Shown in pieces: positions 8,668-36,741 of a stretch of DNA of 64,000 nt. The notes beneath the pieces were generated by a model. That model was not told the origin of the DNA, ran no database searches, and saw nothing but the letters and a program-made list of their open reading frames with translations. This DNA is from an uncultured delta proteobacterium (GTDB taxonomy: Bacteria; Desulfobacterota; Binatia; UBA9968). The position numbers and the translations under genes are program-made. Within the stretch, counting starts at the first letter, position 1. Each line of letters begins with the position of its first letter. The stretch covers positions 96,001 through 160,000 of the forward strand of contig CAVSLC010000010.1 of assembly GCA_963728565.1 (NCBI GenBank), in the 5' to 3' direction.

Positions 8668-8683
8668 TGCAACCGATATGCCA
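8668..8683 (-). promoter_or_regulatory. sigma54 (-24/-12) promoter
   Basis: Minus strand TGGCATATCGGTTGCA = GG-N10-GC with TTGC, about 50 bp upstream of the ATG at 8615. Confidence 0.8.
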
Positions 8684-8753
8684 CGCATGTAGAGATTAAT
8701 CTGTTGCATTCTCGATGCTGCTCCCTGAGGATTCGATTGTTACCGCGATTTAT

Positions 8754-8801
8754 GTCCCAAACGCGGGTAAATCAGCAGCAAGTGCCTTGCGCAAATGGGA
8801 C
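8754..8801. promoter_or_regulatory. Putative paired enhancer (UAS) sites
   Basis: GTCCCA at 8754 and TGGGAC ending at 8801; same arrangement as 13490..13537. Confidence 0.55.
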
Positions 8802-9105
8802 GAGGTTCTCAAGTGGTTTGAACAAGGGAGTCAACAGGAATGTGGCTGATCCGGGTGTGCCGCGCTGCGCGCTTAGCATACCCGGGGTACGGTAGCGACA
8901 TCGGTCGGCAGTTTTTCAGGATCGGCAATTGGCGGAGACAAGGCTGCGCCAAACCTTGATGAGCTTGACGCTTTAGCTCGCGCGGGGGCGCGTGCCGAGT
9001 GGAACCGCGCAGATTAAACCCAACCTAGGAGTTGTGAAGTTCCTCGGTCGCAAGACCTTCTAGATCAAGGACGAGGATTGCAGACCGGTATTATGCTGGC
9101 ACGAA

Positions 9106-10059
9106 CTAGAGCCGCGGCAGAATCTTGCGCTCGTAGAATTGAAAAAAGCCTTCCTGATCAGCACCGACTTGATGGACAAAAACATGATCGTAACCCGCCC
9201 GCTCATACTCCTGAATCGCTTCCCAGTGACGTTCGGGATCGGGTCCGCAGATGACGGTTTTTGCCACTTCGGTCTTATCGATCATCGTGGCTGCTTGTTC
9301 GAAATAATTCGGCAGCGCCAACTCAGACATTAACGGCCCGCTCAGTCCTGAAATCGGCCACTGCTTGTAGGCGGTCGCCTCAGCTTGACTTTGGTTTTCG
9401 GCCCAGCAGACGGTGAGCTCGCCGTATCGTGGGTTTCCGCTGCCGCCCGAGCGATTGAAAGCATCGATGACCGCCGCGTCGGCGGTAGTGCCGACAAAAC
9501 CATCGCCGATTTCTGCCGCCAGCTTGGCCGCGTTTGAGCCACTGCCGGCCAATGCGATTGGCGGCAGCTCGTCCGGTAAGGTATAGAGGCGCGCGTTCTC
9601 TACTTGGTAATACGCGCCGGAGAAATTTTCCTGCTTGCCGCTCCAAAGCAAGCGGATGATTTCCACGGCTTCCTTAAGCATGGCATGGCGAATGCGCACC
9701 GGCGGCCACCGATCCCCGAAAATATGTTCATTGAGATTCTCGCCGGCTCCCAGACCAAGGATGAAGCGCCCCGGCATCATGGAAGCGGCGGTAGCCGCCG
9801 CTTGCGCAATGATGCCGGGATGTATTCTGATGGTCGGACAAGTCACCGCGGTGCCAAGCAGCAGTTTGCTGGTCGTTTGAGCGATGGCACCAATCACCGG
9901 CCATACGAAAGGGCTCTGACCTTGCGCATCGATCCATGGGTGAAAGTGATCGGAGATCATTGCGAAGCTGAATCCGCATTGTTCTGCTCGCCGTGCTTGA
10001 GCGACTAGATCCTGTGGCCGATGCTCCTCGCTCGACAGCTTGTATCCGATTTTGAGCAT
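9106..10059 (-). CDS. F420-dependent LLM-class oxidoreductase (G6PDH-like, TIGR03557 type)
   Basis: IGYKLSSEEH, ISDHFHPW, GTAVTCPTIR, GLGAGENLNEH motifs. Confidence 0.88.
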   Translation of the reverse strand: MLKIGYKLSSEEHRPQDLVAQARRAEQCGFSFAMISDHFHPWIDAQGQSPFVWPVIGAIAQTTSKLLLGTAVTCPTIRIHPGIIAQAAATAASMMPGRFILGLGAGENLNEHIFGDRWPPVRIRHAMLKEAVEIIRLLWSGKQENFSGAYYQVENARLYTLPDELPPIALAGSGSNAAKLAAEIGDGFVGTTADAAVIDAFNRSGGSGNPRYGELTVCWAENQSQAEATAYKQWPISGLSGPLMSELALPNYFEQAATMIDKTEVAKTVICGPDPERHWEAIQEYERAGYDHVFVHQVGADQEGFFQFYERKILPRL

Positions 10060-10123
10060 GCAATATTATCCGTTGGCCTGCCGGAGAAACGACTTGATGG
10101 AGGCCTGATTGAAAGCTATGCGC

Positions 10124-10205
10124 GTTGAACGTTAGAAGTTCAAGGCTCAAACGTCAGCCTTTTACAGGCCGCCACCGCTGGAGCCTTGAACCCGAACGCC
10201 GAACG
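10124..10205. repeat. Intergenic inverted repeat with degenerate 7-bp periodic arms
   Basis: GTTCAAGGCTC (10138-10148) and GAGCCTTGAAC (10181-10191) are perfect reverse complements, flanked by gttgaac/gttagaa and cgaacgc/cgaacga heptamers. Confidence 0.5.
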
Positions 10206-10231
10206 ATGAAGGGGTTAACGGTTGGCCGCGA

Positions 10232-10492
10232 TTAAACAGTGCGCCGTCGCCCGATTACGGCGCGATAGATCGCCAGCAAAATGATCGCGCCGATCACCGC
10301 CATGATGAAGCCGGCTGGCTCCCCTTCTTGATAAAACCCGAGAGCGCGCCCGACGAAGCCGCCCAGCAAGGCGCCGGCGATGCCTAGCAGAATTGTAACG
10401 ATAAATCCTCCGGGGTCGCGCCCCGGCATCAAGAACTTGCCGACGATTCCGACAATCAGTCCGAAGATAATCCATCCAATCCATCCAAGCAT
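10232..10492 (-). CDS. GlsB/YeaQ/YmgE (transglycosylase-associated) stress membrane protein
   Basis: WIIFGLIVGIVGKFLMPGRDPGG...LGIAGALLGG...AVIGAIILL; AAGGA RBS. Confidence 0.9.
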   Translation of the reverse strand: MLGWIGWIIFGLIVGIVGKFLMPGRDPGGFIVTILLGIAGALLGGFVGRALGFYQEGEPAGFIMAVIGAIILLAIYRAVIGRRRTV

Positions 10493-10537
10493 AGTAGTTC
10501 CTTTCTTCTGTTGAGTTTGTCTAGCCGATTGAATAGC

Positions 10538-11092
10538 TCAATGTTTATCTTGCTCCGTGCCCAATTCCTGTAACAAGGTGACGAGGTCGTCAGCGTGCTC
10601 TTCTTCCACCGCCAGGATTTCTTCCATCAAACGACGGCTGGTGGAGTCATTTTCGCCGAGATAATGCGCCATCTCCCGATAGCTGTCGATGGCAATGCGC
10701 TCGGCCACCAGATCCTCTTTAATCATGTCGAGGAGGGTTTCGCCTTCGACATACTCTGCGTGACTGCGGGTCATCAAGCCGTCGGGCGATAAGTCAGGAG
10801 CGCCGCCGAGCTGAACGATACGCTGGGCGATTTGATCGGCATGTCCCTGTTCTTGGTTGGCGTGCTCGAGAAACTCCTGAGCCACTGCCTGAGCATGGAT
10901 TCCCGAAGCCATGTAGTAGTGTCGCTTGTAGCGCAGTGTGCACACGATCTCCGTCGCCAGCGCTTCATTGAGTAGTTTAACCACGGTATCGCGGTCGGCT
11001 TTGTAACCCGGCGTGATGGCGCCTTGTTCGATATGTTGACGCGCCCGCTCTCGGAGCGTCTTGATATCGGTTAAAAAAGGCTTATCAGCCAT
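10538..11092 (-). CDS. Ferritin-like (bacterioferritin/Dps-like) protein
   Basis: LNEALATEIVCTLRYKRH, QEQGHAD, EDLVAERIAIDSY and EEEHADD diiron helices; AAAGGAGG RBS before the ATG at 11092. Confidence 0.85.
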   Translation of the reverse strand: MADKPFLTDIKTLRERARQHIEQGAITPGYKADRDTVVKLLNEALATEIVCTLRYKRHYYMASGIHAQAVAQEFLEHANQEQGHADQIAQRIVQLGGAPDLSPDGLMTRSHAEYVEGETLLDMIKEDLVAERIAIDSYREMAHYLGENDSTSRRLMEEILAVEEEHADDLVTLLQELGTEQDKH

Positions 11093-11218
11093 AACTCCTC
11101 CTTTCACAGTGAACTCATCACCGCTTATAGCCAGATTGTCGGCGGCGGCGCAAGTCGGATAATTGTTCGCTTTGGGCTCTATTATCGGCGGCAGTGCCAG
11201 CCCAATACGGCCTCTATG

Positions 11219-11845
11219 TTAAGCTCGCCGCCTGGAGCGGTTTCCTGATTTCTTAGTTGCCTTGCGCCCGCTGCTCTTTTTCGTGCTGCCGGTTTTACGC
11301 GCCGCAGTCTTGCTGCTTGCGGACTTTTTGCTGGCAGCCTTGCGCGCGCTGGATTTGGAGGCAGCGCTTTTGCGGCCGGCCGGGGCATTTGATGCCTTTT
11401 TAGTTGCCCGACCGCTGTTCTGCATTTGCTGCTTTCGTTGCGCCATCTGCTGACCCAGCGAGTTCAGGTCGAGCTGGCTCTCCTCAACCTTGGGCAGCAT
11501 CTCGTTCTCTTCTTCCTCAACGTGGTGCTGTACATTCTCCATTAGCTGGGAGAATTGCGATTCAAATTCTTGATTCGCTTCTTCCATCCGTTTAAGCTCG
11601 CTGATCAGTTGTTTGACGGTTTGGTGCTCCTCGATCGCCTCCTGGACCATCGAGCCGTCGTCGACTTCGGTTTTCACCGCAGGGTAGAAGATTTCCTCCT
11701 CGAGAGCGGCGTGAACTTCGAGCTCAGCCATGGCATTCTCAGCCAAGCGCCGCTTGGCTTGCGCGCCTTTCGTCTGCTCAAATTTTTTGAATAACCCTTC
11801 GACTTTTTTGTGGTCCTGACGGATCATCTGTGTTGCATTAGGCAT
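11219..11845 (-). CDS. Hemerythrin/HHE domain protein with basic histone-like C-terminal tail
   Basis: DH, HAALEEEIFYP, EEH and HHVEEEE motifs; about 60 aa Lys/Ala/Ser/Arg tail; GGAGGAG RBS. Confidence 0.85.
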   Translation of the reverse strand: MPNATQMIRQDHKKVEGLFKKFEQTKGAQAKRRLAENAMAELEVHAALEEEIFYPAVKTEVDDGSMVQEAIEEHQTVKQLISELKRMEEANQEFESQFSQLMENVQHHVEEEENEMLPKVEESQLDLNSLGQQMAQRKQQMQNSGRATKKASNAPAGRKSAASKSSARKAASKKSASSKTAARKTGSTKKSSGRKATKKSGNRSRRRA

Positions 11846-11881
11846 AATTGGCTCCTCCATCGTTTGGTGAAATTGGTTGCT

Positions 11882-12988
11882 TTACTGCGATGCGCCCTGT
11901 ACGTGTACCAGCTCGGGTTTGTCTACCGGCGGCCGGGTTATTTCTTGTTCCATTCCCGGTCTCTGCCGTTTGCTATAGGGTTCCAGTTGTACGACGCTGC
12001 CGATTTCCGCCGAACCGTAGAGTGCGCGGATAACGCGCACATCGGCCAATCCTTCCGCTCCGGATGGTTCCGGATCGACATTATCGATAATGCAGTTGGA
12101 AAAATAGATTAGCTCCGGGGCAAATTGATCCCGGCTGGAAAAAGTCCGTTCGCGGGTTTTGCCTTTAACCGTGAGGCGGTGCTTGAGCTCTCCAACATAC
12201 TCATAAGCCGGCTCAACGCGCAGGCTACCCTCGGTGCCGACCAGCTCATAGGCCGATACATCCGCGGCTCCAAAGCTGCAGGTGAATGATGCTAATCGCT
12301 CTTCGGGAAAACGCAAAACGGCGCCGGTCATCTCATCGACTTCCCCGAAGCGCGGGTCTTTACCGCTGATGCTGAACGCGTGGACTTCCGACGGCTCGGC
12401 CTGAAACAGGGAGCGCGCCGCATTGATGCAGTACACGCCGATATCGTAGAGCGTGCCGCCGCCGAGCTCTCGTTTCAGCCGAATGTTATCTTCCTTCACT
12501 TGCATCGCAAACACCGAAGAGAAGAATCGCGGCTCACCGAGTTTGCCGGAACGCGCAATCTCGACCGCTTCAAGGTTGGCCTTCTCGAAATGAAGCCGAT
12601 AGGCAATCATCAGCTTCACTCCGCCGTTTTGGGCGGCCGAAATCATCTTCTCGCAGTCATCTTCAGTCACCGCCATCGGCTTTTCACAGAGAACATGAAT
12701 GCCGGCTCGGGCGGCGCGCACGGTAAAGTCACGGTGGAGGTTATTAGGCAGCGCGATATAGACGGCATCGACAGCGCCGCTGCTCAGGCACTTGTCATAC
12801 TCCTCATACGAATAAGTATGTTGGACTTTGTATTTACTGCGGAGTTTCTCATGCTTGGCCGGATCATCCGACACCAAGGCGGTGAGCTGGGAATTCTGAC
12901 GGGCGTGAGCGAATGCAGGCAAGACGGCAACTTGCGCGATGTGCCCGAGGCCGACCACGGCATATCTGATTTTAGCTCGTTCAACCAT
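11882..12988 (-). CDS. Gfo/Idh/MocA family oxidoreductase (glucose-fructose oxidoreductase-like)
   Basis: YAVVGLGHIA, YIALPNNLH, HVLCEKPMA, GGGTLYDIGVYC. Confidence 0.9.
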   Translation of the reverse strand: MVERAKIRYAVVGLGHIAQVAVLPAFAHARQNSQLTALVSDDPAKHEKLRSKYKVQHTYSYEEYDKCLSSGAVDAVYIALPNNLHRDFTVRAARAGIHVLCEKPMAVTEDDCEKMISAAQNGGVKLMIAYRLHFEKANLEAVEIARSGKLGEPRFFSSVFAMQVKEDNIRLKRELGGGTLYDIGVYCINAARSLFQAEPSEVHAFSISGKDPRFGEVDEMTGAVLRFPEERLASFTCSFGAADVSAYELVGTEGSLRVEPAYEYVGELKHRLTVKGKTRERTFSSRDQFAPELIYFSNCIIDNVDPEPSGAEGLADVRVIRALYGSAEIGSVVQLEPYSKRQRPGMEQEITRPPVDKPELVHVQGASQ

Positions 12989-13364
12989 GGTGCTGCCGGC
13001 TTGGAAGAACGGTTGCGGTGCGGCCACTTGGTTTTACTTCAATTTGATCGTTCACCGTCAATCCTGAATCGACGCTCTTGGCCAGATCGATTGCTTTGGA
13101 ACGCAACTCCTCAGATTCTACTGACCCTGAGAGAGTAATCTCGCTGTTAGTCGAATCGGCGCTGACGCCGAGCTCCGCCGATCTCAACTGTTCGTCGGCT
13201 TTGAACTTCGCTTTAACTGCACTCTCGAGGTCCGCATTGCTTCGCGCCATGGCTGTCGTTTCGCTGAGCGAGGGTGCTTGGTTGTCGGAATTACCGGATC
13301 TGTTGCAGGCAACCGCTGCGATGGCCAGCAGGAACACAACCACTGCCAGTAATTTCTGGATCAT
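12981..13364 (-). CDS. BON domain lipoprotein
   Basis: Lipobox AVAC after a hydrophobic stretch; BON signature ITLSGSV...VNDQIEV. Confidence 0.8.
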   Translation of the reverse strand: MIQKLLAVVVFLLAIAAVACNRSGNSDNQAPSLSETTAMARSNADLESAVKAKFKADEQLRSAELGVSADSTNSEITLSGSVESEELRSKAIDLAKSVDSGLTVNDQIEVKPSGRTATVLPSRQHHG

Positions 13365-13402: not shown

Positions 13403-13418
13403 GGCAAAAAATATGCCA
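13403..13418 (-). promoter_or_regulatory. sigma54 (-24/-12) promoter
   Basis: Minus strand TGGCATATTTTTTGCC (GG-N10-GC), about 40 bp upstream of the BON ATG. Confidence 0.8.
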
Positions 13419-13489: not shown

Positions 13490-13537
13490 GTCCCAAAGCC
13501 GGTACGAGCGCACGAAGCTCGCATGCAGAACTGGGAC
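13490..13537. promoter_or_regulatory. Putative paired enhancer (UAS) sites
   Basis: GTCCCA at 13490 and TGGGAC ending at 13537; same 48-bp span as 8754..8801. Confidence 0.55.
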
Positions 13538-14484: not shown

Positions 14485-14766
14485 TCAGCGGGTGAGATAA
14501 TCACTGAGAGTGAAGGTGATAAAATGCAGCAACCATATGAGGCCGGCTCCGGCAAATACACGGGCCAGAAAAGTGCTGTGTCTAAGATGCATGAAGTAGA
14601 TCATCACCAGCGCCGCTTTGGTCATGGCGATGGCCAGTGCAGCCGGCGTGTTAAGCGGCCCCAGATTGATGAAGGCCATTCCCGTGGTGATGAGGGTAAG
14701 AAGCAGGAGCGCGCCGAATACCAGGAGATAAGTTTTTCTTTGTGCTGCTGCGGCGTGCGGGTCCAT
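14485..14766 (-). CDS. ctaF: Cytochrome c oxidase (caa3) subunit IV
   Basis: Three TM helices, IAMTKAALVMIYFMHLR motif, last gene of the oxidase operon. Confidence 0.85.
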   Translation of the reverse strand: MDPHAAAAQRKTYLLVFGALLLLTLITTGMAFINLGPLNTPAALAIAMTKAALVMIYFMHLRHSTFLARVFAGAGLIWLLHFITFTLSDYLTR

Positions 14767-15413
14767 CAGTGCCGTCCAATCAGGTAAAGCAGGGGGAAGA
14801 GAAAAATCCATACGATATCAACGAAATGCCAGTAGAGGCCGACCATTTCCACGGGAGTATAATAGCTCGCGGAAAATTCTCCGCGCCAGGCGCGCAGTGC
14901 CGTCCAGATAATCAGCCCGGCGCCGATCACCATGTGAAGAGCATGCATGCCGGTCATAGCGAAATAGAGCGAGAAAAAAATCGCCGCGTGACGCGGATCG
15001 GCATCACTAAATTGAAAACCGGGGCCGGGAACCAGGTGCTCATGGAATTTGTGCTGGTACTCAACACCCTTGATGCCGAGGAAAACCAGACCCAGCGCTA
15101 ACGTTGCCGCAAGAAAGAGGATCTGGCCGCGCCGCCGGCCCAGCTGCGCGCTGTAAACCGCCAGGACCATTGTCAGGCTGCTGCCGATCAAAACTCCTGT
15201 GTTGATCGTGCCAAGAGTAACATCAAGATGGTGGCTGGCGGCGGCGAACGCCTGCGGAAAGGACAGGCGATAGACGATGTAAGCGACAAACAAGCCGCCA
15301 AAAAAAAGAACTTCGGTAGCCAGAAACGTCCACATGCCGAGGGTGGACGCTTCGACCTGCTGCTCGGGATCGTCGAATTGATGCGCCAGCGCGGCGCCAT
15401 GTATCTCAGCCAA
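14766..15413 (-). CDS. ctaE: Cytochrome c oxidase subunit III
   Basis: [41 protein letters not shown]; TTG start after GAGGAG. Confidence 0.92.
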
Positions 15414-17044
15414 CTTTCTGCTCCTCCTCGTAGGCGTACGCCGGTTGCGATACTCGCGGCTTATAGTCGAAGTTATCGGTTGGCGGCGGCGAAGCTGTGG
15501 TCCACTCCAAGCCTCTGGCGTCCCAAGGATTGGCGCCGGCGTACGGGCCATAGCGCATCGACCAGAAGAAATAGATCAACGGAATCAGGTAGCCCACGCC
15601 GAGGATCGAAGCGCCGGCCGATGACATGACGTTAAGCACTTGAAACTCGTCAGGATAGGCGGCATAGCGCCGCGGCATGCCGAGATAACCTAAAATAAAT
15701 TGCGGAAAAAACGTCAGGTTAAAGCCGACGAAGATAACCAGGGCGGAGAAGCGCGCCCATCCTTCCGGATAGAGCCTGCCGGTGATCTTCGGCCACCAGA
15801 AATGGAGGCCGCCGAGATACCCCATAATAGCTCCGCCGACCATGATGTAATGAAAGTGAGCGACTATGAAATAGGTATCATGCACATGCACGTCGATCGG
15901 CAGAGTAGCAACGAAGATCCCGGTCAACCCGCCAATTGTGAACAGACCGATAAATCCGAGCGCATAAAACAATGGCGTGCGATAAACGATCGAGCCTTTG
16001 TAAAGCGTCGCTGTCCAATTAAATACCTTGATCGCCGACGGAATTGCCACCAGCATACTGAGAAAGGAAAAGACCAACCCGGCGTAAACTGATTGGCTGC
16101 TGACGAACAGGTGGTGACCCCAGACAAAAAAGCCAAGGACTGCAATGGCAATGCTGGAGAAAGCGATAAACGTATAGCCAAAAATCCGCTTGCGCGAGAA
16201 GCACGGAACGATCTCGCTGACCACGCCCATGGCCGGCAGGATCATGATGTAAACCGCAGGATGGGAATAAAACCAAAATAGATGCTGGAACAGTACCGGA
16301 TCGCCGCCCTAAACGCGGATCGAAGATGCCTAAGTGAAACAACCGCTCCAGGGCAACCAGAACCAGGCTGATGGCCAAAACCGGAGTGCCCAGTACCATG
16401 ATCAGGCTGGTAGCATAGTGGGACCAAATGAAAAGCGGCAGGCGCAGCCAGGTCATTCCCGGCGCCCGCATTTTGTGAATCGTCACGATAAAGTTCAGGC
16501 CGGTCAGGATCGAGGAGAAGCCGGTAATGAAAGCTCCTGTCACGGTAAGAGCGACGTAACTATTAGCATAGGTGCTGCTGTACGGGGTGTAGAAGGTCCA
16601 GCCGGTATCGACTCCTCCCATGATGGCGGCCATCAACGTGAACAGACCGCCGATAATGAACACGTACCAACTCAAGAGATTCAACTTGGGGAACGCCAAA
16701 TCGCGCGCGCCGATCATCAACGGCACGAGAAAATTTCCCAGCACCGCGGGTATCGATGGAATCAGAAAAAAGAAGATCATCACCAATCCGTGCAGGGTGA
16801 AAAGCTTGTTGTAGGTTTCGGCTTCAAAAAGATCGGATTGCGGCGTGAGCAATTCCAGGCGAAACAGCACCGCCGCGGCGCCGCCCAGAAAAAAGAATAA
16901 AGTGATCGCAACCAGATACAGCAATGCGATGCGCTTGTGATCGACGGTCAATAGCCAGGAACGAACGCCGTAGTTGACGTTCAAGTAATGCCGTCGCGGC
17001 GGACGCGCCTGCGAGGCGACGGATCTTTCGGCTATCACACTCAT
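15406..17044 (-). CDS. ctaD: Cytochrome c oxidase subunit I, type A2 (one frameshift near 16308)
   Basis: [35 protein letters not shown]. Removing one G of the GGG at 16307-16309 restores [20 protein letters not shown], where the YS motif marks the A2 subfamily. Confidence 0.92.
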
Positions 17045-17994
17045 GATGGGTTCTTTTCCTCCGGCGCTCTGCCGAGCGTCCTTAGATAAACGAGGATCTG
17101 ATGCAGCGCATCTTCGCTGATCTGGCCTTGATAGGTCGGCATAATCGGCCGGTATCCGGAGACGAGCTTGCTGTTGGGATTGAGGATTGATTCACGGATG
17201 TACGCCTCATCGGCCACCACAGACTCGCCCGAATCGAGTTTGACCCGACGGCCGAACAGGCCAGTCAACGCCGGGCCCTGCGCCGTGGATGTGGTCTGGT
17301 GACAGTTTTCACACCCGAGTTGCTGAAATAGCCGCTCGCCGCTGACCGCGATCGGTTCCTCACCAGCTTGCGAGGTAAGCCACTTCTGGTAGTCCACGGG
17401 CTTCATGGCGACCACTCTGCCGATCATTCCGGAATGTTGCGTGCCGCAGTATTCGGCGCAGAACAGGTGAAACTCGCCTTCCCGGTTGGCTTCGAACCAA
17501 GTCGTGGTATATCGGCCCGGAACGACGTCCATCTTGATGCGAAAGGCCGGCACGTAAAAACTATGGATGACATCTTCCGAGGCGAGGATAACTTTGACCG
17601 GCTGGCCCACCGGAATATGCATTTGATTTATTTCCCGGGCTCCGCTTGGGTGTTGAAGCTTCCACATCCACTGGCGTCCCACCGCGCGCAACTCCAGGGC
17701 GTCCTGCGGCGCTTGGGACATATGGACGAACAGGCTGGCGCCCCAGCCGAAACTGATCATGACCAGGATCAACGGGACAATCGACCAGAGAATTTCCAGG
17801 CGCATGTCGATGTGGATCGGCGGCGGCCGCTCGGTCGCGGAGCGGCGGCGATACTTAGCCGTAAAGTAAATCACCGTGCCGAATATGAGAGCGACGAAAA
17901 AAGTGGCCATCGCCACTAAGAAGAAATAGAGCGCATCGACTTGGCCGGCGAAGGTCGAGGCTGGCACCGGGAACAGCGGAAGGTCTTCGAACAC
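17041..17994 (-). CDS. ctaC: Cytochrome c oxidase subunit II with fused cytochrome c (caa3 type)
   Basis: CuA motifs DVIHSF and [12 protein letters not shown]; C-terminal CENCH heme motif. Confidence 0.95.
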
Positions 17995-17996
17995 CG

Positions 17997-18860
17997 CTAA
18001 GCCTCCGCTTCCTCGTGTGAGCCGCGCCGCTCGCGCCGCAGCATGGTGATGATAAAGGTTGCCATCGCCAGCACAGTTGACACTCCGGCCAGCCGTAGAG
18101 CAGCCATGATGACGAATCCATACTTTCCGGTGAGCGGATTATAGTGATAGCAGTAGAGCAGCAGTTGATCGATGGCGCTGCCGATGGTGCCGTCGCCCGC
18201 TTCCACCAATGCCAGACGGATGTCGCGCGTCGTATAGTCGATGCCGTAGAGCACCCGGGCTATATTTCCCTGCGGCGTAAGAACGAAAATCCCGGATGCG
18301 TGCACGTACTGCTGGCTGGCCTCGTCCCAGGCATAAGTAAATCCGGCGCTTCGGGTCACTTCTTCGATGGCGCTTTTCTCTCCGGTGAGAAAGTGCCAGC
18401 CGATCTCGCTGTCATCCCGGCCATAGCGATTGATGATCTCGAGTTGTTTTTTTTGCGCCATCTCCGGACCATCCCGCTCATCGATGCTGACCACGATCAC
18501 GTCGAAATCGCGGCCCGCATTGAGCGACAAAGGTTTGAGGCTCCGCACCAATCCCTCAAGCACCAGAGGACAGAGCATGGGGCAATCGAAATAAGAAAAA
18601 ACCAGCACTGCGGGTTTACCGGATAAAGCTGATTGCAGCGAAACCGACGCGCCGGTTTGATCGCGAAAGCCTGTTTCTAGCGGCAGCCGGGTGCCGAGCT
18701 TTTGTTCAATCCCGACGTTCTTAAAGATCTCCGGTTGATTGTGCGAGGAAATCGGCGCGACTTTGTCGTCATGCGGGCGCGCAGCTTCCGGCGCCACGAT
18801 GTGGGTCATGGCGAGCGCAAAAATCGCCGCCGAAAATCCCCTCCAAAGATCAGACTTCAC
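17997..18860 (-). CDS. SCO1/SenC family copper chaperone
   Basis: YFDCPMLC (CxxxC) and YVHAS His ligand; position in the ACIII-oxidase operon. Confidence 0.9.
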   Translation of the reverse strand: MKSDLWRGFSAAIFALAMTHIVAPEAARPHDDKVAPISSHNQPEIFKNVGIEQKLGTRLPLETGFRDQTGASVSLQSALSGKPAVLVFSYFDCPMLCPLVLEGLVRSLKPLSLNAGRDFDVIVVSIDERDGPEMAQKKQLEIINRYGRDDSEIGWHFLTGEKSAIEEVTRSAGFTYAWDEASQQYVHASGIFVLTPQGNIARVLYGIDYTTRDIRLALVEAGDGTIGSAIDQLLLYCYHYNPLTGKYGFVIMAALRLAGVSTVLAMATFIITMLRRERRGSHEEAEA

Positions 18861-21004: not shown

Positions 21005-21032
21005 AATCAACGATGAGCGCTCAATTTCTTCG

Positions 21033-25955: not shown

Positions 25956-25965
25956 CTGGTTATCC

Positions 25966-26622: not shown

Positions 26623-26635
26623 TCACCCGCTGTGA

Positions 26636-27139: not shown

Positions 27140-27155
27140 TTCTGATCCTCGGCGA

Positions 27156-28450
27156 TTAAAGTTCGAGTAACATCCGCACCGGATCCTCGACCGCTGTTTT
27201 TATCTGTTTTAAAAAGGTGACCGCCTCGCGCCCGTCGATGAGGCGATGATCGTAGCTCAAGGCCACATACATCATCGGCCGGATTACAACAGCGCCGTCA
27301 CGCGCCACCGGCCGCTCCTGCATCGCGTGCATTCCCAGGATAGCGCTCTGCGGCGGGTTGATAATCGGCGTTGACAGCAGCGATCCGTAAACGCCGCCGT
27401 TAGTGATCGTAAAAGTACCGCCTTGCAATTCGTCCGGCTTCAACTTGTTCTCCCGAGCGCGGCGGGCAAAGTCGCCGATGGCGATTTCGATTGCCGCAAA
27501 GCTCATGCTTTGGGCATCGCGCAGCACCGGCACGACCAGCCCGCGCCCGCCGCCCACGGCTACGCCAATGTCGAAATAGTTCCGGTACACGATACTACCG
27601 TCGCGTATTTCCGCGTTGACCTCCGGAATAAGCTTGAGCGCTTCAATTGCCGCTCTGACAAAAAAAGACATCAAGCCGAGTCTGACGTTGTATTTTTCCT
27701 TGAAAGCATCTTGATGGATCTGCCGCAGCTGATTGACGATCGACATGTCGATCTCGTTAAAAGTCGTCAGCAGGGCGGCAGTTTGCTGTGCCTGGACTAA
27801 CCGTTCGGCAAGTCGGCGGCGCAACTGGCTCATCGGCACGAGTTTTTCCTGCCGCTCGCTTCGGCTATCCCTGGCAATAGGCGATACTGAAATCTCGGCA
27901 GGCCGCGTCTGCTCTGACGGCGCCTCACGATCGGGAACCGATGGCCTGGCCTCTAGCTCAATTTCAGCGCCTTGGGTTGGTCGCGGCCGGCGCGCTCGTT
28001 TGGCCTTGTTGCGGCGGTTGCTCGATGAAAACTTGCAGTGGGCTCAGTAGCGCTGGGTCGCGCATCCGGCCCGTCCTCGGAATCCGCTTCGCCGGCGCTG
28101 ACCGGCTGTTCCGGCTTGGTTACTTTAGCCCGGCGGCCCTTTGGTTTTTTTGCTTCCGATGATTCAGCGACGCTCGTCTGATCTTCTCCAGCTCCATCGA
28201 CACTGGTATCTCCAGCCTGGTCCAGATGGCCGATAACTTCGCCGACTTGCGCGGTTTCTCCGCTGGCTTTTAAAATCTTGCTGAGCCTGCCTGCTTGCGG
28301 CGCAACAATTTCAACCGTCGCCTTGTCGGTTTCGATGACGACGAGATCCTCATCCTGCTGCACCGAGTCGCCGACGGCTTTGAGCCAATCACCAATTTCA
28401 ACCTCGGTGATTGATTCGCCGACCTCGGGAACCTTAACCTCAATGGTCAT
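27156..28450 (-). CDS. sucB: 2-oxoglutarate dehydrogenase E2 dihydrolipoyl succinyltransferase (frameshift in linker, about 27955-28046)
   Basis: Lipoyl domain [10 protein letters not shown]...ETDKA; catalytic domain [27 protein letters not shown]. Confidence 0.88.
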
Positions 28451-28502
28451 TGCCCACCTTATGGAATTGACCGGTCCTCAACAGCATTAAAGCTAGCGCT
28501 CG

Positions 28503-31292
28503 CTACTGGTTTCCGAAAGCGGCGGCCAGCAGCTCGGTTTGTTGCTGATGATGCCGGCTTGCCGAGCCGGTTGCCGGACTGGCGGAAGCGGCGCGCGCGA
28601 CCACCGAAAAAGGAAATCGATCGAAAAGCTTGTTGCCGAGCTGAAGGTGCCAAAAGCATGCGGCGCCCATGTTGCGAGGTTCTTCTTGAATCCACACTAC
28701 CGGCGTGCCGGCGCCGTAGCCTTGCAGAACCCCCCGCAGCCGCTCTTCCGGCACCGGATAAAATTGCTCGATGCGCACGATGGCGACGTCATCGCGGTTC
28801 ATCTCCGCGCGCCTTTTCTCCAGGTCGTAATAAACTTTGCCGCTGCACAAGAGAATTCTCCGACAATCCTGGCGCCCGCTAAGATCGCCGATGACGGTTT
28901 CAAACTCTCCATCAGCCAAGGCGTCGAGATCGGAGACTGCCCCCGGATGACGCAGCAAACTTTTGGGAGTCATAATCACCAACGGCTTACGCCATCTGCG
29001 CAGCACTTGTCGGCGCAGGCAATGAAAGTATTGCGCTGGCGTTGTCGGATAAACCACCTGGAGATTATCCTTGGAGCAAAGCTGCAGAAACCGTTCGATG
29101 CGCGCGCTCGAGTGCTCCGGTCCCATGCCTTCAAAGCCATGCGGGAGTAACAAAACCAAGCCGCTCAGCCTGCGCCATTTTTCTTCGGCGCTGGTGATGA
29201 ATTGGTCGATGATGACTTGCGCGGCATTGACGAAATCGCCGAACTGCGCTTCCCACAAAGTCAGAGCCTCGGGATAGTCAAGACTGTAGCCGTATTCGAA
29301 ACCCAATACGCCGGTTTCGGAAAGCGGGCTGTTGATGATCTCCACCGGAGCTTGCCCGCGCTGCAGGTGCTGCAGCGGAACATAGGCGTGCCCATCGTGG
29401 TAATCACGCAGCACCCCATGGCGATGGCTGAAAGTCCCGCGCGCGCTGTCCTGCCCGGACAAGCGTACCCTGATTCCTTGGACGGCCAAACTCGCAAACG
29501 CCAAGGCTTCTGCTGCGGACCAGTCGATGGGCCGTGTTCCACGGGCCATTTCCTGACGCAGCTCTAGCCCGCGTTTGATCTTTGGGTGCGGCTGAAAATC
29601 TTTAGGGATGCGCGCCAGAGCTTCAAGCAATGCCGAGAGCCGTTCTCGCTTCACCGCCGTGGGGACCGGTGCTGCTGCCGGTTCGAGTCCGCCGGAATAC
29701 CCGGCCCAGAAGCTGCCAAAACTCTGCGGCGTCGGAACGGCGCTGGTGCTGCGCGCCTGCGCCAATTCGTTCTCCAAATCGCTCCGGCGCTGCGCCACCA
29801 ACCGGTTTGCTTCACCGGCATCGATGATTTTTTCCCGCAGCAGTTTTTCCAAATAGAGATCGCGCACCGGCCGATGCTTCTTAATCGCTTGATAGAGTCT
29901 CGGTTGCGTAAACGTCGGTTCATCGCCCTCGTTGTGGCCCCAGCGGCGATAGCCATACATATCGATCACCGCATCGCGTTTGAACGTGCGCCGGAAATCC
30001 ATCGCCAGGCCGACGACCTGCGCGACCGCTTCGGGATCATCGCCGTTGACGTGAAAAATAGGCACCTGCAACATCTTGGCAATGTCGGTGGCGTAACGGC
30101 TGGAGCGCGCTTCTTTCGGGGATGTCGTGAAACCGATTTGGTTGTTTATCACCACGTGCAGCACACCGCCGATGCTATAGCCCTCCAGCTGACTCAGGTT
30201 GAGGGTTTCCTGAGTCACTCCTTCGCCGGCGAAAGCCGCGTCGCCATGAATCAGCAGCGCCATGCCACGGCCGTGTTGCTGGTCGCCCGTACGGTCCTGC
30301 TTGGCGCGCATACGTCCGATCGCTACCGGATTAACGAACTCGAGATGGCTCGGGTTGAAACAAAGGGAAAGATGTATTTTCTTCCCGGACGCGGTTTCGT
30401 AGTCATTGCTGTAGCCCAGGTGGTATTTCACATCGCCGCCGCCACTCTCGGCGGTGAGAGGATCGTCGAATTCACGAAAAATCTCCCACGCACTCTTGCC
30501 GATAATATTGGCGAGGACATTCAAGCGGCCGCGGTGGGCCATCGCCAGGACGATTTCCTGCAAACCGTCACGCGCCGCGTGATCGATGGCAAAATCCAGC
30601 AGCGGTATGAGGCTTTCGGCGCCTTCCAGTGAAAAGCTTTTGGCGCCAACGAATTTTTTTCTGACGAATTCTTCGAACGTCACCGCGTCGGTGAGACGCG
30701 CGAGAATCCTCAGCTTTTGCTTATGATCCAGCTCAAGGTGATTTTGGCTTTCTTCCATGCGCCGCTGCAGCCAATTTCGAATTGCCGGCTCGTCGATATG
30801 CATGAACTCGACACCGATGGCGCCGCAGTAAGTACGACGCAACCGTTCGACAATCTCGCCGATAGTCAACGGGCCGTTCCAGGGCAACCCAACGGCGGGA
30901 AAAAGCCGCTTCATGTCATCGACGGTGAGGCCGTAAAACTCCGGGTCGAGAGAAGGTTGCGGATCATTGGATAAGCCGAGCGGATCGATGCTGGCCGCTT
31001 TATGCCCAAGACTGCGAAACGCTCTGATCATCTCGTTGACTTGTTCTTGTAAGGTAGAGGCGCGGGACGCGACGCTGGTTGCCGAGCCGCTTGCATGCGC
31101 GACGCCGCCATTGCTTTCACTGCTCGGCGGCATCGGCGTGGTTTGGCCGTCGGAGCCATCGCCGTTGAGCGCGGCGAAGTAGGCGCGCCAGTCCTGATCT
31201 ACCGATGATGGATCGACAACGTAAGCGGCGTAAAGCGCTTCTATATAAGCCAGATTAGCTGAATTGGAGACCTGTTGGATCCTGCTGTTCAT
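28503..31292 (-). CDS. sucA: 2-oxoglutarate dehydrogenase E1 component
   Basis: MAHRGRLN, GDVKYH, NPSHLE, HGDAAFAGEG TPP motif, WEAQFGDF, GPEHSSAR. Confidence 0.96.
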   Translation of the reverse strand: MNSRIQQVSNSANLAYIEALYAAYVVDPSSVDQDWRAYFAALNGDGSDGQTTPMPPSSESNGGVAHASGSATSVASRASTLQEQVNEMIRAFRSLGHKAASIDPLGLSNDPQPSLDPEFYGLTVDDMKRLFPAVGLPWNGPLTIGEIVERLRRTYCGAIGVEFMHIDEPAIRNWLQRRMEESQNHLELDHKQKLRILARLTDAVTFEEFVRKKFVGAKSFSLEGAESLIPLLDFAIDHAARDGLQEIVLAMAHRGRLNVLANIIGKSAWEIFREFDDPLTAESGGGDVKYHLGYSNDYETASGKKIHLSLCFNPSHLEFVNPVAIGRMRAKQDRTGDQQHGRGMALLIHGDAAFAGEGVTQETLNLSQLEGYSIGGVLHVVINNQIGFTTSPKEARSSRYATDIAKMLQVPIFHVNGDDPEAVAQVVGLAMDFRRTFKRDAVIDMYGYRRWGHNEGDEPTFTQPRLYQAIKKHRPVRDLYLEKLLREKIIDAGEANRLVAQRRSDLENELAQARSTSAVPTPQSFGSFWAGYSGGLEPAAAPVPTAVKRERLSALLEALARIPKDFQPHPKIKRGLELRQEMARGTRPIDWSAAEALAFASLAVQGIRVRLSGQDSARGTFSHRHGVLRDYHDGHAYVPLQHLQRGQAPVEIINSPLSETGVLGFEYGYSLDYPEALTLWEAQFGDFVNAAQVIIDQFITSAEEKWRRLSGLVLLLPHGFEGMGPEHSSARIERFLQLCSKDNLQVVYPTTPAQYFHCLRRQVLRRWRKPLVIMTPKSLLRHPGAVSDLDALADGEFETVIGDLSGRQDCRRILLCSGKVYYDLEKRRAEMNRDDVAIVRIEQFYPVPEERLRGVLQGYGAGTPVVWIQEEPRNMGAACFWHLQLGNKLFDRFPFSVVARAASASPATGSASRHHQQQTELLAAAFGNQ

Positions 31293-31470: not shown

Positions 31471-31486
31471 AGCAAGGTATATGCCA
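31471..31486 (-). promoter_or_regulatory. sigma54 promoter for the sucA-act-cta operon
   Basis: Minus strand TGGCATATACCTTGCT (GG-N10-GC, TTGC). Confidence 0.75.
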
Positions 31487-31623: not shown

Positions 31624-31639
31624 TGGCATATTTGTTGCG
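31624..31639 (+). promoter_or_regulatory. sigma54 promoter for the sigma70-family gene
   Basis: TGGCATATTTGTTGCG (GG-N10-GC, TTGC), 60 bp upstream of the ATG at 31699. Confidence 0.78.
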
Positions 31640-31698: not shown

Positions 31699-33261
31699 AT
31701 GGATTCAGAGTCCGCTCTGCGCGCGAACTGCGCTTCCGTTGCCAGTGCTCTGAAAAATTTTCGCACAGAAGATCAGCCCGAGGAGGATCGGCCGGAAGTC
31801 GATCTGGCTGACGGATTAGCGATCGACTCCGATAGCATCTCCGGTGACGGGCGGCGGGAGGCGGAGGAAACGGAAGCGAGCGTCGGCAAAGAGTCCTTGT
31901 CGATCTACTTGAACGAAATTCGCTCGTTTCAGTTGCTCACGCATCAGCAGGAGATTGACATTGCCAAACTCAGAGAAGACGGCGAATCCAAAATCCTCGA
32001 AAGCATCCTTTCTACGCCGGTAGCTTTCCAGCATGTGCTCGACTTGGCTGACAAAATACAAAACGACGAGATCCGCTTGTCTGACGTTATCGAGAGGCTG
32101 ACAAGAGAAGACGACACTGCTGGCGCGCCTGTCGAATTCCAACTGGATACGAGAGACGCATTTTTGAAATCCGTACGCTCGATCAAGAGGCGCCTGAGAA
32201 AAATCGAAGCGCTGCAGCGCAAAGCGCAGGCAAAAAAAACCTCCCAACGAGCGCGCCGATTGCTGCGGCGAACTATCACCAGGGAAGACCAAAAGATCGT
32301 CGGCATGCTCCGCGACCTCGGTTTAACACGGCTGCAACTCACGGCAATCGCCGAATCGTTGCGGCAATCGGCGCGGCGCACGGTCGCCTGCGAAAGGTTG
32401 CTGGCTGACTGTGCTGGAGTTCAGCGACAAGCTTGCTTGCGGGAAATAAAGGAGATCGAACAAACGACCGGTATGAGTTCCGAAGAGCTCAAACGTCGTG
32501 TCGACGCAATATCGGACGGTGAGCAACAAGCAGATACGGCGAAAAAGCTTTTCACCGAGGGTAACCTCCGCTTGGTGGTCAGCATCGCCAAACGTTTCCG
32601 CCGTTTCAATATGGATCTCGCAGACTTGATCCAGGAGGGAAACATCGGTTTGATGCGGGCGGCCGAGAAGTTCGACCACCGTCTAGGGTATCGTTTTTCC
32701 ACCTATGCCACCTGGTGGATACGCCAGTTTATCGCTCGCAGCATGGTTGATTCCGGACATATGATTCGGATTCCCGCTCACATCGTGGAAGCCAGGAGCA
32801 AGTTGCTGCGCAGCTTCGAGGATCTCGCGCAAAGGCTCGGTAGAACCCCTCGGCCGGAAGACATGGCCGCTGACACCGGCCTTAGCCTTCAAGAGATTCG
32901 AAGAATCGTCACACTGCCAAGTGAGCATCTGTCGCTGCAAGCGCCGCTTGGCGAGGGTTCCGAAGAAACACTGCAGCATTACGCCAGGGACCGACGCGCT
33001 CAGGACCCGGCGGACGAACTTTTAAAAACCGATCTCTATTCCGCTACTCGACAATCTTTATCGATTCTCAATCCGCGGCAACAAATCGTGTTGCGGCACC
33101 GGTTTGGCATCGACCTTACCCGGGAGCACACCTTGCAGGAGATTGGCGATATGTTTTTAATTACCCGTGAGCGCGTGCGCCAAATCGAGGTTAAGGCGTT
33201 GCGCCAGCTGCGGATCCCGGCAGCCAAGAAAAAAATCAAAAGGGCCGCCGGCGCGCTTTAA
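31699..33261 (+). CDS. RpoD/SigA-family RNA polymerase sigma factor paralog (no evident region 1.1)
   Basis: Region 1.2 [14 protein letters not shown], region 2 [32 protein letters not shown], region 4 [13 protein letters not shown]; GAGGAG RBS. Confidence 0.9.
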
Positions 33262-34910: not shown

Positions 34911-34926
34911 GGCAAGCTCCGTGCCA
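34911..34926 (-). promoter_or_regulatory. sigma54 promoter
   Basis: Minus strand TGGCACGGAGCTTGCC matches consensus TGGCAC-N5-TTGC, 47 bp above the GTG start. Confidence 0.82.
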
Positions 34927-35454: not shown

Positions 35455-35470
35455 CGCCGCGCGCGTGCCA
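35455..35470 (-). promoter_or_regulatory. Degenerate sigma54 promoter upstream of the ABM pseudogene
   Basis: Minus strand TGGCACGCGCGCGGCG: perfect -24 box and GG-N10-GC but lacks TT before GC. Confidence 0.35.
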
Positions 35471-35532
35471 GAGCCTCGATGTTCTGCCGTGCCTCCGCAG
35501 CGTTTCGCTCCTCAATATCTCGACCGCCTTCC

Positions 35533-35577
35533 GTCCCACTGAAATGATTAGATCATGATCATCGTCCCACATCGGAG
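35533..35577. promoter_or_regulatory. Putative paired enhancer sites
   Basis: CGTCCCAC repeated, with the G at 35533 and 35564 (31 bp apart), between divergent sigma54 sites. Confidence 0.5.
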
Positions 35578-35621
35578 AAAGGCAAATAATCAAGCCGTGC
35601 AATTCCACCCAGTTGGACAAG

Positions 35622-35637
35622 TGGCATGTGCGTTGCT
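35622..35637 (+). promoter_or_regulatory. sigma54 promoter
   Basis: TGGCATGTGCGTTGCT (GG-N10-GC, TTGC), 44 bp above the ATG at 35681. Confidence 0.8.
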
Positions 35638-35680
35638 CATGATTTGAAGCGAGATCAAACTGGCTGTGGAGGATCAAGTA

Positions 35681-36163
35681 ATGAAACAGGCATTCGGAAG
35701 TGGCGATCGGGGGGAATTTTCCGGCAGCACTCGTTTTGAATCCAAGGATGCCGATTTTTCCGACGATATTTTGTCTCAAATCAGTAGTATGCCGCTGGGC
35801 ATTCATGCGGCGACTAATCAGAACCGTCGAATGGAAATCATGGGAGAGTTCATCTTGGTGCAGGCGATCCTTCGTGAAGCCATTCGGACGTATCAGAAGT
35901 ACGCGATAAAAAAAGGTACTCGCGCGACCCGGTTGTTTCGCGACGTGAACGAGTGGTTTTCATCCGATGACCGGCATTGGTTCTTTTCATTCGTCAACGT
36001 TTGCGACACCCTCGGGCTCGAGCCTACTTACATTCGCACCGGGCTCAAGCTATGGCGCGAGCGTAAGCTGCAAACAAATGGTGTGTCTTCGGCTATTCCG
36101 GATTATCAGCCGATTGCCAGGAATTCGCGGCAGCGACTGTTGGCGAATGAACTGAGAAGTTAA
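35681..36163 (+). CDS. Conserved-looking hypothetical protein
   Basis: GGAGGA RBS; helical core AILREAI...EWFSSDD..WFFSFVNVCDTLGLEPTYIR. Confidence 0.7.
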   Translation: MKQAFGSGDRGEFSGSTRFESKDADFSDDILSQISSMPLGIHAATNQNRRMEIMGEFILVQAILREAIRTYQKYAIKKGTRATRLFRDVNEWFSSDDRHWFFSFVNVCDTLGLEPTYIRTGLKLWRERKLQTNGVSSAIPDYQPIARNSRQRLLANELRS

Positions 36164-36229
36164 CGACGGCATTTGCCTTTACCCCGACCCATTAGCTAAA
36201 CGACTGGTCGCCGCCGGGGCGATTTCAGA

Positions 36230-36604
36230 ATGTCAACTACCGAACAAGAGATAGAGCGATTAGTCGAGGAAATCAGCCGCGCGATTCAACGGGGCCCGGC
36301 GGATCAGCGGGCCGAGCTCCGTTCGTATGCTTCATCCCTCGTCAACGATATCGCTACCGGGTCGCCGGTTCCGCCAAGCCAAACTTCAGGTCAAACTGAA
36401 CGCCGTCCATTTGGTTTAGTCGCCGCCGGATTGGCTTTACTAGTGATCGGCGCTGGATTCGCCTTGATGATTACACCCATCGGATTAACCCTTATGGCCC
36501 TTGGGTGTGGTTCTCGCTATCTGGGGTGGAATAGCTGGATGGTGGACGACTCGCGGAGATGTGCGAGCTGGCAATCAGGGAAGCCGATGAAGCAATTTCT
36601 CTAA
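36230..36604 (+). CDS. Hypothetical membrane protein
   Basis: Helical N-terminus plus a hydrophobic segment; the C-terminus may be frameshifted. Confidence 0.55.
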   Translation: MSTTEQEIERLVEEISRAIQRGPADQRAELRSYASSLVNDIATGSPVPPSQTSGQTERRPFGLVAAGLALLVIGAGFALMITPIGLTLMALGCGSRYLGWNSWMVDDSRRCASWQSGKPMKQFL

Positions 36605-36637
36605 TCCTCTTCGAGGGCCGCTAATTGAGTGTCGTCT

Positions 36638-36685
36638 GTGTTGTTTTCAGGACACGGCCGGAGTAGTGTGTCTCAACTGAGACAC
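36638..36685. promoter_or_regulatory. Tandem palindromic activator-binding sites
   Basis: Perfect GTGTCTCA-AC-TGAGACAC at 36668-36685 and imperfect GTGTTGTTTTCAGGACAC at 36638-36655, 30 bp apart; both TGT-N10-ACA. Confidence 0.65.
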
Positions 36686-36725
36686 GAATCTATTCACGGA
36701 AAAGGAAACCTCGCGGATATACAAC

Positions 36726-36741
36726 GGGCACGCATCTTGCG
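36726..36741 (+). promoter_or_regulatory. sigma54 promoter for the enhancer-binding protein gene
   Basis: GGGCACGCATCTTGCG (GG-N10-GC, GGCAC and TTGC). Confidence 0.72.

Follow-up and report, generated by a model that had tools for sequence, protein, structure and literature searches.

Seven sigma-54-type promoters and a probably autoregulated NtrC-family activator in a gene region of an uncultured Binatia bacterium

The DNA analyzed here is a 64-kb stretch, hereafter called the window, from the assembly of an uncultured bacterium of the Binatia (contig C10, positions 96001 to 160000; assembly G000, 4.53 Mb in 28 contigs, 80.55% complete). Between 7.7 and 38.2 kb of the window, envelope, protection, respiration, and regulatory genes stand behind sigma-54-type promoters, together with the gene for a bacterial enhancer-binding protein (bEBP) of the NtrC family. 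The first-pass annotation of this sequence had described a 28-kb island with seven or eight such promoters under a single activator. Here, the promoters, the activator, and their counterparts were analyzed in the window, in the whole assembly, and in 20 relatives, including 7 of the same genus (congeners) and G010, which belongs to a different genus. The principal features are listed below, with promoter distances measured from the end of TTGC to the likely start codon.

7734..8615, minus strand: gene for a secreted protein with a peptidoglycan-binding domain (PG_binding_1), by domain match
8669..8683, minus strand: sigma-54-type promoter TGGCATATCGGTTGC, 53 nt before the ATG (8615) of the peptidoglycan-binding protein gene
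9106..13364, minus strand: six-gene stress operon, a single operon as judged from small intergenic gaps
13404..13418, minus strand: sigma-54-type promoter TGGCATATTTTTTGC, 39 nt before the BON gene
14485..31292, minus strand: tightly packed run of same-strand genes with small gaps
31472..31486, minus strand: sigma-54-type promoter TGGCATATACCTTGC, 179 nt before sucA
31624..31638, plus strand: sigma-54-type promoter TGGCATATTTGTTGC, divergent from the promoter at 31472 and 60 nt before the sigma factor gene
31699..33261, plus strand: gene for an RpoD-like factor of the sigma-70 family, with matches to regions 1.2, 2, 3, and 4
34912..34926, minus strand: sigma-54-type promoter TGGCACGGAGCTTGC, 47 nt before a sugar-1-phosphate nucleotidyltransferase gene (33818-34864)
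35622..35636, plus strand: sigma-54-type promoter TGGCATGTGCGTTGC, 44 nt before the gene for a 160-aa protein (35681-36163)
36726..36740, plus strand: near-consensus sigma-54-type promoter GGGCACGCATCTTGC, 106 nt before the bEBP gene
36847..38199, plus strand: gene for an NtrC-family response-regulator bEBP (REC, AAA+ with GAFTGA, and Fis-type helix-turn-helix)

In the window, the extended consensus TGGCAY-N5-TTGC occurred six times (8669-, 13404-, 31472-, 31624+, 34912-, and 35622+), against a mean of 0.44 and a maximum of 3 in 100 dinucleotide-preserving shuffles, none of which reached 6. The seventh site (36726+) is one base off the consensus, the T at -26 being missing. In the six exact matches and this one-off match, GG and GC are 10 nt apart within TGGCAC/T-N5-TTGC, and four of the sites have the extended sequence TGGCATAT in common, as had been noted before. 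The looser description given at that time, GG-N10-GC with TTGC, carried no signal above chance by itself. Neither GG-N10-GC (842 matches versus 852 expected) nor GG-N8-TTGC (40 versus 51.7) was enriched in the window, and both patterns were rejected as evidence. Thus, the signal resides in the extended consensus. All seven sites are intergenic and oriented toward a gene whose start codon lies 39 to 179 nt downstream and is preceded by a Shine-Dalgarno-like sequence. As proposed in the first-pass annotation, nearly every transcription unit from 7.7 to 38.2 kb begins behind one of them. At the level of sequence, the seven sites are confirmed as real sigma-54-type promoters.

Two further positions in the window were considered.

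35455..35468, minus strand: unsupported "degenerate" site GGCACGCGCGCGGC, not counted as a promoter
60971..60985, minus strand: candidate sigma-54 promoter CGGCACACATGTTGC, upstream of a gene for 130 to 151 aa without a family match

The former had been put forward as an eighth promoter. It lacks TTGC; in the genome, the class of sites in which neither T of TTGC is retained has no intergenic excess (24 versus 34 expected), and neither G006 nor G002 has a consensus site at this position. The latter lies in the last 18 kb of the window, where no site had been found by eye.

Across the genome, 83 of the 95 strict sites were intergenic, compared with 2.4 expected from the coding-DNA density; intergenic DNA makes up 17% of the assembly. 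Three one-mismatch classes were also enriched between genes (first T, 31 versus 8.7; C of GGC, 20 versus 6.7; first T of TTGC, 22 versus 7.7), and two-mismatch classes showed no enrichment. The summed excess was approximately 136 intergenic sites over chance. The strict class and the three enriched one-mismatch classes together provided 156 intergenic sites, referred to below as likely sites. Eighteen bEBP genes were found, 16 with an intact sigma-54-interaction domain and 2 split. The genome-wide network would accordingly be sized at roughly 136 to 156 sigma-54 promoters and 18 activators, and the comparison of motif density with shuffled and background intergenic DNA, suggested with the original proposal, yielded an excess. 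Elsewhere in the genome, two outward-facing sigma-54 promoters at C18:41052(-) and 43403(+) are near-identical over more than 100 nt upstream, and this inverted duplication flanks a bEBP gene (C18:42024-42521). The sequence TATTTTCTCAAA, which recurs about 80 to 100 nt upstream of several sigma-54 sites on C23 (e.g., 260747, 260915, and 64299), could represent the target of a further activator or an IHF-like element.

The island (C10:104-133 kb) holds 7 likely sites, compared with 1.04 expected from its intergenic length (Poisson, 1e-4). It is part of a larger dense region, C10:8-133 kb, with 27 sites versus 4.37 expected (P = 3e-13) and a site in 22 of 75 intergenic gaps, against 4.7% genome-wide. 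Five nonoverlapping 30-kb windows hold at least 7 sites, with a maximum of 13 versus a null maximum of 10; the other dense patches, with 7 to 13 likely sites each, are C10:22-54 kb, C23:254-290 kb, C23:197-228 kb, and C9:83-113 kb. Firm clustering therefore holds at the 125-kb scale, not at 28 kb. The island does show a local excess, but it is a patch of a 125-kb dense region, and its density is equaled or exceeded in four other windows. A paralogue of the island bEBP (61% identity) is encoded in the C23:197-228 kb patch, which also has tblastn matches to a small open reading frame located near the bEBP relative of G010.

The DNA of the region is 93 to 94% identical in G005 and G001, about 80% in G006, and about 70 to 81% in G002; G005 and G001 are too close to inform on site conservation. 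In G006 and G002, a consensus site was present at all five places compared (31472-, 31624+, 34912-, 35622+, and 36726+), and the intergenic flanks have diverged. The equivalents of 36726+ read CGGCACG-N4-TTTGC in these two genomes and CGGCATG-N4-TTTGC in G007, and the 31472- promoter is also kept in G005 and G001. The BON promoter is kept in four of five congeners (G004, G006, G007, and G002); in G003, its -24 element is intact and its -12 element reads TTGT. The promoter of the peptidoglycan-binding protein gene is kept, together with its upstream site, in both congeners compared (G004 and G006). The proposed check in related genomes was thus positive, with promoters kept at orthologous places in congeners of only 70 to 82% DNA identity. 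In G002 (C144:3952-4617) and G007 (C186:17549-18139), BON and peptidoglycan-binding domains occur in one open frame behind a single promoter.

Upstream of four of the promoters, paired or repeated half-sites were found.

8754..8801, no strand assigned: putative upstream activator site GTCCCA-N36-TGGGAC, 70 nt upstream of the 8669- promoter
13490..13537, no strand assigned: putative upstream activator site GTCCCA-N36-TGGGAC of the BON operon, present in 5 of 5 congeners examined
35533..35569, no strand assigned: direct repeat of GTCCCA(C), two copies whose starts are 31 nt apart, upstream of 35622+, both kept in G006 and G002
36669..36684, no strand assigned: palindrome TGTCTCAACTGAGACA, 42 nt upstream of the bEBP promoter, kept in G006 and G002

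The N36 element lies 70 to 71 nt upstream of the TGG at the peptidoglycan-binding and BON promoters; in G004 and G006, its half-sites are kept and the spacer sequence varies. In G007, one half of the palindrome at the bEBP promoter is GGGACA, so that GTCTCA and GTCCCA look like variants of one half-site (GTCYCA). With other intergenic DNA as the background, GTCCCA/TGGGAC ranked first among 2080 hexamers upstream of the 156 likely sites (24 versus 6.7, P = 1.8e-7); TGTCCC came next, and CGTCCC, TGTCTC, and TCCCAC ranked seventh, eighth, and tenth. Seven of the 156 sigma-54 sites had pairs of GTCYCA upstream, as did 25 of 2596 control segments, in a partly post hoc count (Fisher P = 0.0017). Island promoters make up four of these seven sites, including that of the bEBP itself. 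The exact GTCCCA-N36-TGGGAC pattern occurs in 2 to 4 copies each in this genome and in six of the seven congeners, where a control pattern occurred 0 times; outside the genus, the sole match was in a coding sequence of G014. The third copy in this genome (C5:148151-148198), which G004 and G005 also have, precedes TGGCACGTGATTCGC by 51 nt; a small stress-type gene beginning MAGKNTAAFGIY follows TGGCACGTGATTCGC.

A related arrangement was found in G010, where GTCCCA-N35-TGGGAC lies between a divergent pair of sigma-54 promoters in front of sucA, and a 65%-identical bEBP is encoded about 3 kb from this pair. This layout ties the sucA promoter to the GTCCCA element and the element to the neighborhood of the bEBP. 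No informative nearby sites were found for the bEBP relatives in G011, G003, G004b, the second G010 copy (G010:C163), and the C23 paralogue.

The activator has the predicted REC-AAA+-helix-turn-helix architecture, with GAFTGA intact at residue 218 and matches to PF00072, PF00158, PF25601, and PF02954. It scored below the curated NCBIfam cut-offs for AtoC (449 versus 714 bits), NtrC (410 versus 558.6), ZraR (388 versus 760), and PrsR (378 versus 502.6). The protein is 99 to 100% identical in congeners whose DNA identity is 80 to 93%, and 96% identical in G002 and G007. The neighboring sigma factor is only 53 to 92% identical across the genus, and a related-locus search with this protein as the query yielded nothing closer than distant RpoD relatives (46% identity or less), with orthologous loci absent from the matches. 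Judging from these identities, the two regulators are under very unequal constraint.

Outside the window, a stressosome module lies behind another sigma-54 promoter at C10:8352-16787. It encodes, in order, a zinc-ribbon-like small open reading frame, a PAS protein, a bEBP of the same REC-AAA+-helix-turn-helix type (C10:9915-11333), RsbR-, RsbS-, and RsbT-like proteins, a HATPase_c_2-PP2C fusion, and a HATPase_c_2-HisKA-HATPase-REC hybrid kinase. In the RsbRST part (C10:11744-14418), the expected domains were matched in RsbR (N-terminal domain and STAS), RsbS (STAS), RsbT (HATPase_c_2 kinase), and PP2C. The output of this module would be two-component signaling and sigma-54. Its promoter is kept in all three congeners examined (G007, G003, and G002). 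Among the 20 relatives, an RsbR-like protein was found only in the genus, in six of the seven congeners. This set differs from the set of genomes with the N36 element: G002 has N36 and no RsbR match, and the reverse is true of G001.

On balance, we favor as probable the reading that the seven sites are working sigma-54 promoters, that at least four of them form one regulon whose reader is most likely the island's autoregulated bEBP, and that this regulon is part of a genome-wide network. It builds on the motif excess, the intergenic bias, the orthologous conservation, the shared upstream elements, and the activator domains. In this regulon, sigma-54 RNA polymerase would wait as a closed complex on the seven promoters, and an NtrC-family activator, phosphorylated on its receiver domain, would bind 50 to 120 bp upstream and open the complex with ATP. 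The core would consist of the peptidoglycan-binding protein gene, the BON-Dps-hemerythrin operon, the pair of genes for 160 and 124 aa, and the activator gene, with their GTCYCA pairs most likely read by the autoregulated bEBP (36847-38199). The outputs would be protective proteins, a second oxidase set with alternative complex III and 2-oxoglutarate dehydrogenase, and the RpoD-like sigma factor, which would start a second wave of transcription (a cascade from sigma-54 to the sigma-70 family).

Several observations weigh against this reading. Neither PF04552 nor PF04963 gave an rpoN match in the assembly. One copy each was present in all 20 relatives (19 of 19 without the unpublished G012), and the 20 kb around rpoN of G005, a genome 93% identical to the window over 46.7 kb, gave no blastn match in this assembly. 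With the gene in all relatives and its whole neighborhood missing here, rpoN is most probably unassembled rather than lost. Absence of rpoN had been named as grounds for rejecting the regulon; formally it is absent from this 80.55%-complete assembly, but incompleteness would explain the absence. As for clustering, a genome-wide scan statistic does not single out the 28-kb cluster when it is taken alone (P = 0.19): when the 156 sites were placed at random in intergenic DNA, a 30-kb window with at least 7 sites arose somewhere in 19% of 1000 permutations. The gene calls for the genome census came from our own hexamer-based caller, which is crude and missed some genes, among them the peptidoglycan-binding protein gene and the N-terminal half of COX1; an earlier caller based on codon usage was dropped as too crude.

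The upstream elements have weaknesses of their own. With 6 nt, GTCYCA is short, and the island promoters themselves contributed to its definition, so that the count of four in seven is post hoc. The 31472-, 31624+, and 34912- promoters carry only degenerate GTCC(T/C/G) elements in this genome. When spacers of N33-39 were allowed, the paired element was no commoner than the control outside the genus, and exact GTCCC pairs were not enriched (4 of 156 sigma-54 sites versus 2.1% of controls). An expectation-maximization motif search returned, from all five seeds, a low-information T-rich motif in all 156 sequences and hence no independent model. The three geometries, an inverted N36 pair, a direct N25 repeat, and a tight N2 palindrome, are unusual for a single dimeric helix-turn-helix protein. 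The 65%-identical bEBP of G010 may be a paralogue rather than an orthologue, and the promoter of the stressosome bEBP itself has GTCCC elements in this genome, in G007 (three), and in G002, with none in G003.

The RNA evidence, in turn, consists of contigs only, and DNA carry-over in the libraries is possible. Contigs from four soil RNA libraries (four runs from four studies) map to island genes at 93 to 100% identity; among them are pieces on the sigma gene that differ at 0 to 1 positions and one of 503 nt, with 4 differences, that extends across both genes without a known family behind 35622+. Two contigs begin, adapter first, at 35667 and 35676, which is 20 to 29 nt past the start predicted for 35622+ (35648); these starts are a weak hint and are silent on sigma-54 dependence. 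The bins just upstream of 35622+ are almost without contig cover, which proves nothing with contigs and was not used as evidence.

Three other explanations were weighed. Matches arising by chance or composition would account for the loose patterns occurring at or below expectation and for the lack of rpoN in the assembly. However, with no shuffle in 100 reaching the six strict sites, 83 of 95 strict sites intergenic, and sites kept at orthologous places despite diverged flanks, this explanation is scarcely credible. A nitrogen or carbon-source regulon, in which the bEBP would be an NtrC or AtoC orthologue and the promoters would follow nutrient status instead of stress, draws on AtoC and NtrC being its best NCBIfam matches. 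Both scores fall below the curated cut-offs, no glnA, amtB, glnK, or ato gene is among the annotated island genes, and the targets are BON, Dps-like, hemerythrin, oxidase, sigma factor, and familyless genes, which makes such a regulon very improbable.

A divided arrangement deserves more weight, and we regard it as possible, if on the unlikely side. At least 2 of the 18 bEBPs would serve the island: the local bEBP would only regulate itself through the tight palindrome TGTsTC-N6-GAGACA, another activator, e.g., the stressosome bEBP, would read the GTCCCA sites, and the sucA, sigma, and nucleotidyltransferase promoters would have further inputs. The number of bEBP genes and the three geometries fit this arrangement, as do similar palindromes with 6-nt spacers within 300 nt of sigma-54 sites at C20:89136, C10:171035, and C13:384686. 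The conserved promoter of the stressosome bEBP, with its GTCCC elements in three genomes, points the same way, and the RsbR-like protein, confined to the genus, reaches six of seven congeners, just as the exact N36 element does. Yet the two sets differ in G002 and G001; GTCTCA and GTCCCA are one base apart and interchange at the same position in G007; and G010 keeps a bEBP relative beside its N35 promoter pair. The single activator of the first-pass annotation is supported only in part. Four of the seven promoters, including that of the bEBP, have clear GTCYCA pairs, and the G010 element speaks for it, but the three geometries, the 18 bEBPs, and the second, GTCCC-associated bEBP speak against one reader for all seven.

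The genes behind the promoters agree with the functions originally listed, namely, envelope, iron and oxidative protection, a second oxidase, and an RpoD-like sigma factor. The operon behind 13404- encodes a BON/OsmY-like protein, a GFO/IDH/MocA oxidoreductase, a hemerythrin-domain protein with a subthreshold match to the PA2171 persister family, a Dps/ferritin-like protein, an 86-aa protein, and an F420-type LLM oxidoreductase. The 86-aa protein, which may be of the GlsB/YmgE type, has a subthreshold match to NCBIfam PRK10457 (71 bits versus a cut-off of 129). Behind 35622+, the 160-aa protein gene is followed by the gene for a 124-aa membrane protein (36230-36604), and both are without a known family; the nearest Atlas clusters of the 160-aa protein are mostly from Candidatus Binatota, in keeping with the Binatia assignment of the assembly, and it is Binatota-specific. 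The island sigma factor is not the housekeeping copy, which is probably located at C23:190415.

The run at 14485..31292 encodes 2-oxoglutarate dehydrogenase E1 (sucA) and E2, followed by alternative complex III, SCO1, and a caa3-type oxidase, and is possibly a single long unit, with internal promoters still allowed. An intact second COX1 is present on C5, so the island oxidase is an extra copy. The sucA of the run is the sole copy found in the assembly. Among the 20 relatives, the first 200 residues of E1 (28503-31292) had matches at E <= 1e-30 only in the genus (7 of 7) and G010; with matches so confined, E1 may belong to the island rather than to core metabolism. Consensus scans for sigma-70 promoters and terminators stayed at chance (7 versus 9.4, 27 versus 24.4, 11 versus 10.7, and 24 versus 24.4), and thus the operon limits are drawn from gene spacing only. 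The genes for GlgE, TreS-Mak, GlgB, and Hsp20 come after the bEBP gene. Terminator-like hairpins of 9 pairs (38311-38333, after the bEBP gene) and 10 pairs (46030-46053, after Hsp20) were seen, and the former suggests that GlgE-TreS-GlgB may not be cotranscribed with the bEBP gene.

Compared with the 93%-identical G005, the window has single-base indels at 16307, 35357, 41633, 42658, and 43305, which split COX1, TreS-Mak, and an ABM-like gene; the 2-oxoglutarate dehydrogenase E2 is likewise split, with several indels at 27911-28033. At 43305, the extra base is also missing from RNA-library contigs of two runs. These indels are probably assembly errors, and such errors may also depress the completeness figure.

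As judged from its genes, the island resembles a general-stress or dormancy set with a cascade from sigma-54 to an RpoD-like factor. The "dormancy, desiccation, or cyst-like differentiation" of the first-pass annotation is not established; it was drawn from gene content, and no sporulation or cyst genes were seen. Dependence on sigma-54 in vivo, the pairing of activator and sites, the inducing signal, and a role in stress or dormancy would all be predictions of the favored regulon. Elsewhere on the contig, C10:8-96 kb also encodes CsbD, REC-BON, two YihY/BrkB proteins, an M48 peptidase, TamA/TamB, ASRT, a DksA-like protein, PLD, a PRC-barrel protein, a TreS-like amylase, topoisomerase IB, and single receiver proteins. 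By our own gene calls, several of these genes are directly downstream of likely sigma-54 sites.

More speculatively, and as something we hold to be rather unlikely as a whole, the general stress response of the genus may run on sigma-54 in place of a stress sigma factor. The stressosome and hybrid kinase (C10:8-17 kb) would feed one or two NtrC-type activators, which would fire at least 25 promoters over the 125-kb region through GTCYCA half-sites, including the rewiring of respiration by the island (2-oxoglutarate dehydrogenase, alternative complex III, and second caa3 oxidase) and the RpoD-like second wave. The Binatia are widespread and uncultured. Should the promoters work as proposed, ATP-dependent, all-or-none control by sigma-54 would extend to much of the stress-protection gene set of this lineage, to a respiratory chain, and to a second sigma factor; the off/on survival program of the organism could then be recognized in soil metatranscriptomes; and its short enhancer, the GTCYCA pairs, would be testable without culture.

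A literature search found no publication on sigma-54 or gene regulation in Binatia/Binatota and nothing linking the stressosome to sigma-54, the matches for the latter concerning Listeria or Bacillus only. In the portions available to us, reports on the Rrp2-RpoN-RpoS pathway of Borrelia burgdorferi describe an NtrC-like response regulator and a sigma-54 promoter that drive a second gene of the sigma-70 family (PMC2940757, PMC3037356). A similar arrangement is found here, with the 31624+ promoter, kept in G006 and G002, located 60 nt before an alternative sigma-70-family gene. However, the downstream factor is RpoD-like here, with RpoD as the best match (357 versus a cut-off of 555 bits) and the cut-offs of the RpoS models not reached (239 versus 378.7 and 228 versus 394). 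In addition, upstream elements are associated with the promoters of the island, which belong to a genome with dozens of further sigma-54 promoters. The Borrelia activator is not known to depend on a classical enhancer.

A parallel for the paired sites is NmpR of Myxococcus xanthus. The part of the NmpR report available to us describes an NtrC-like response regulator that controls 7 promoters and 23 oxygen-use-related genes and binds to paired sites in front of several sigma-54 promoters, one of which belongs to its own operon (PMC11841059). As far as that description goes, the likeness lies in an NtrC-like regulator with paired sites at several sigma-54 promoters, its own among them. The sites themselves differ, NmpR recognizing GCGCA-N5-TGCGC, whereas the half-site here is GTCYCA with a spacing of 31 or 42 nt. 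No exact match to GCGCA-N5-TGCGC was found at 7000-39000, and the six upstream regions together contained one GCA-N5-TGC core. A further difference from NmpR, as described there, is that no kinase genes lie beside the island bEBP.

In content, the region recalls the general-stress regulons of sigma-B in Bacillus and RpoS in Escherichia coli. The island has OsmY/BON, Dps, a possible (subthreshold) YmgE/GlsB-type protein, and Hsp20, with trehalose and glycogen enzymes nearby, and the extended region adds CsbD and the RsbRST module. The difference lies in the machinery, which here is sigma-54 with ATP-dependent activators, and no anti-sigma partner-switching output was seen. In the excerpts available to us, genome-wide sigma-54 regulons of Geobacter and other bacteria have many promoters and activators and a bias toward envelope functions (PMC2725144, PMC3162934). 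As described there, these networks resemble the present one in having many sigma-54 promoters and many activators in one genome. The mechanism, a bEBP acting with sigma-54, is standard textbook knowledge, and the regulon is real but of a fairly ordinary kind.

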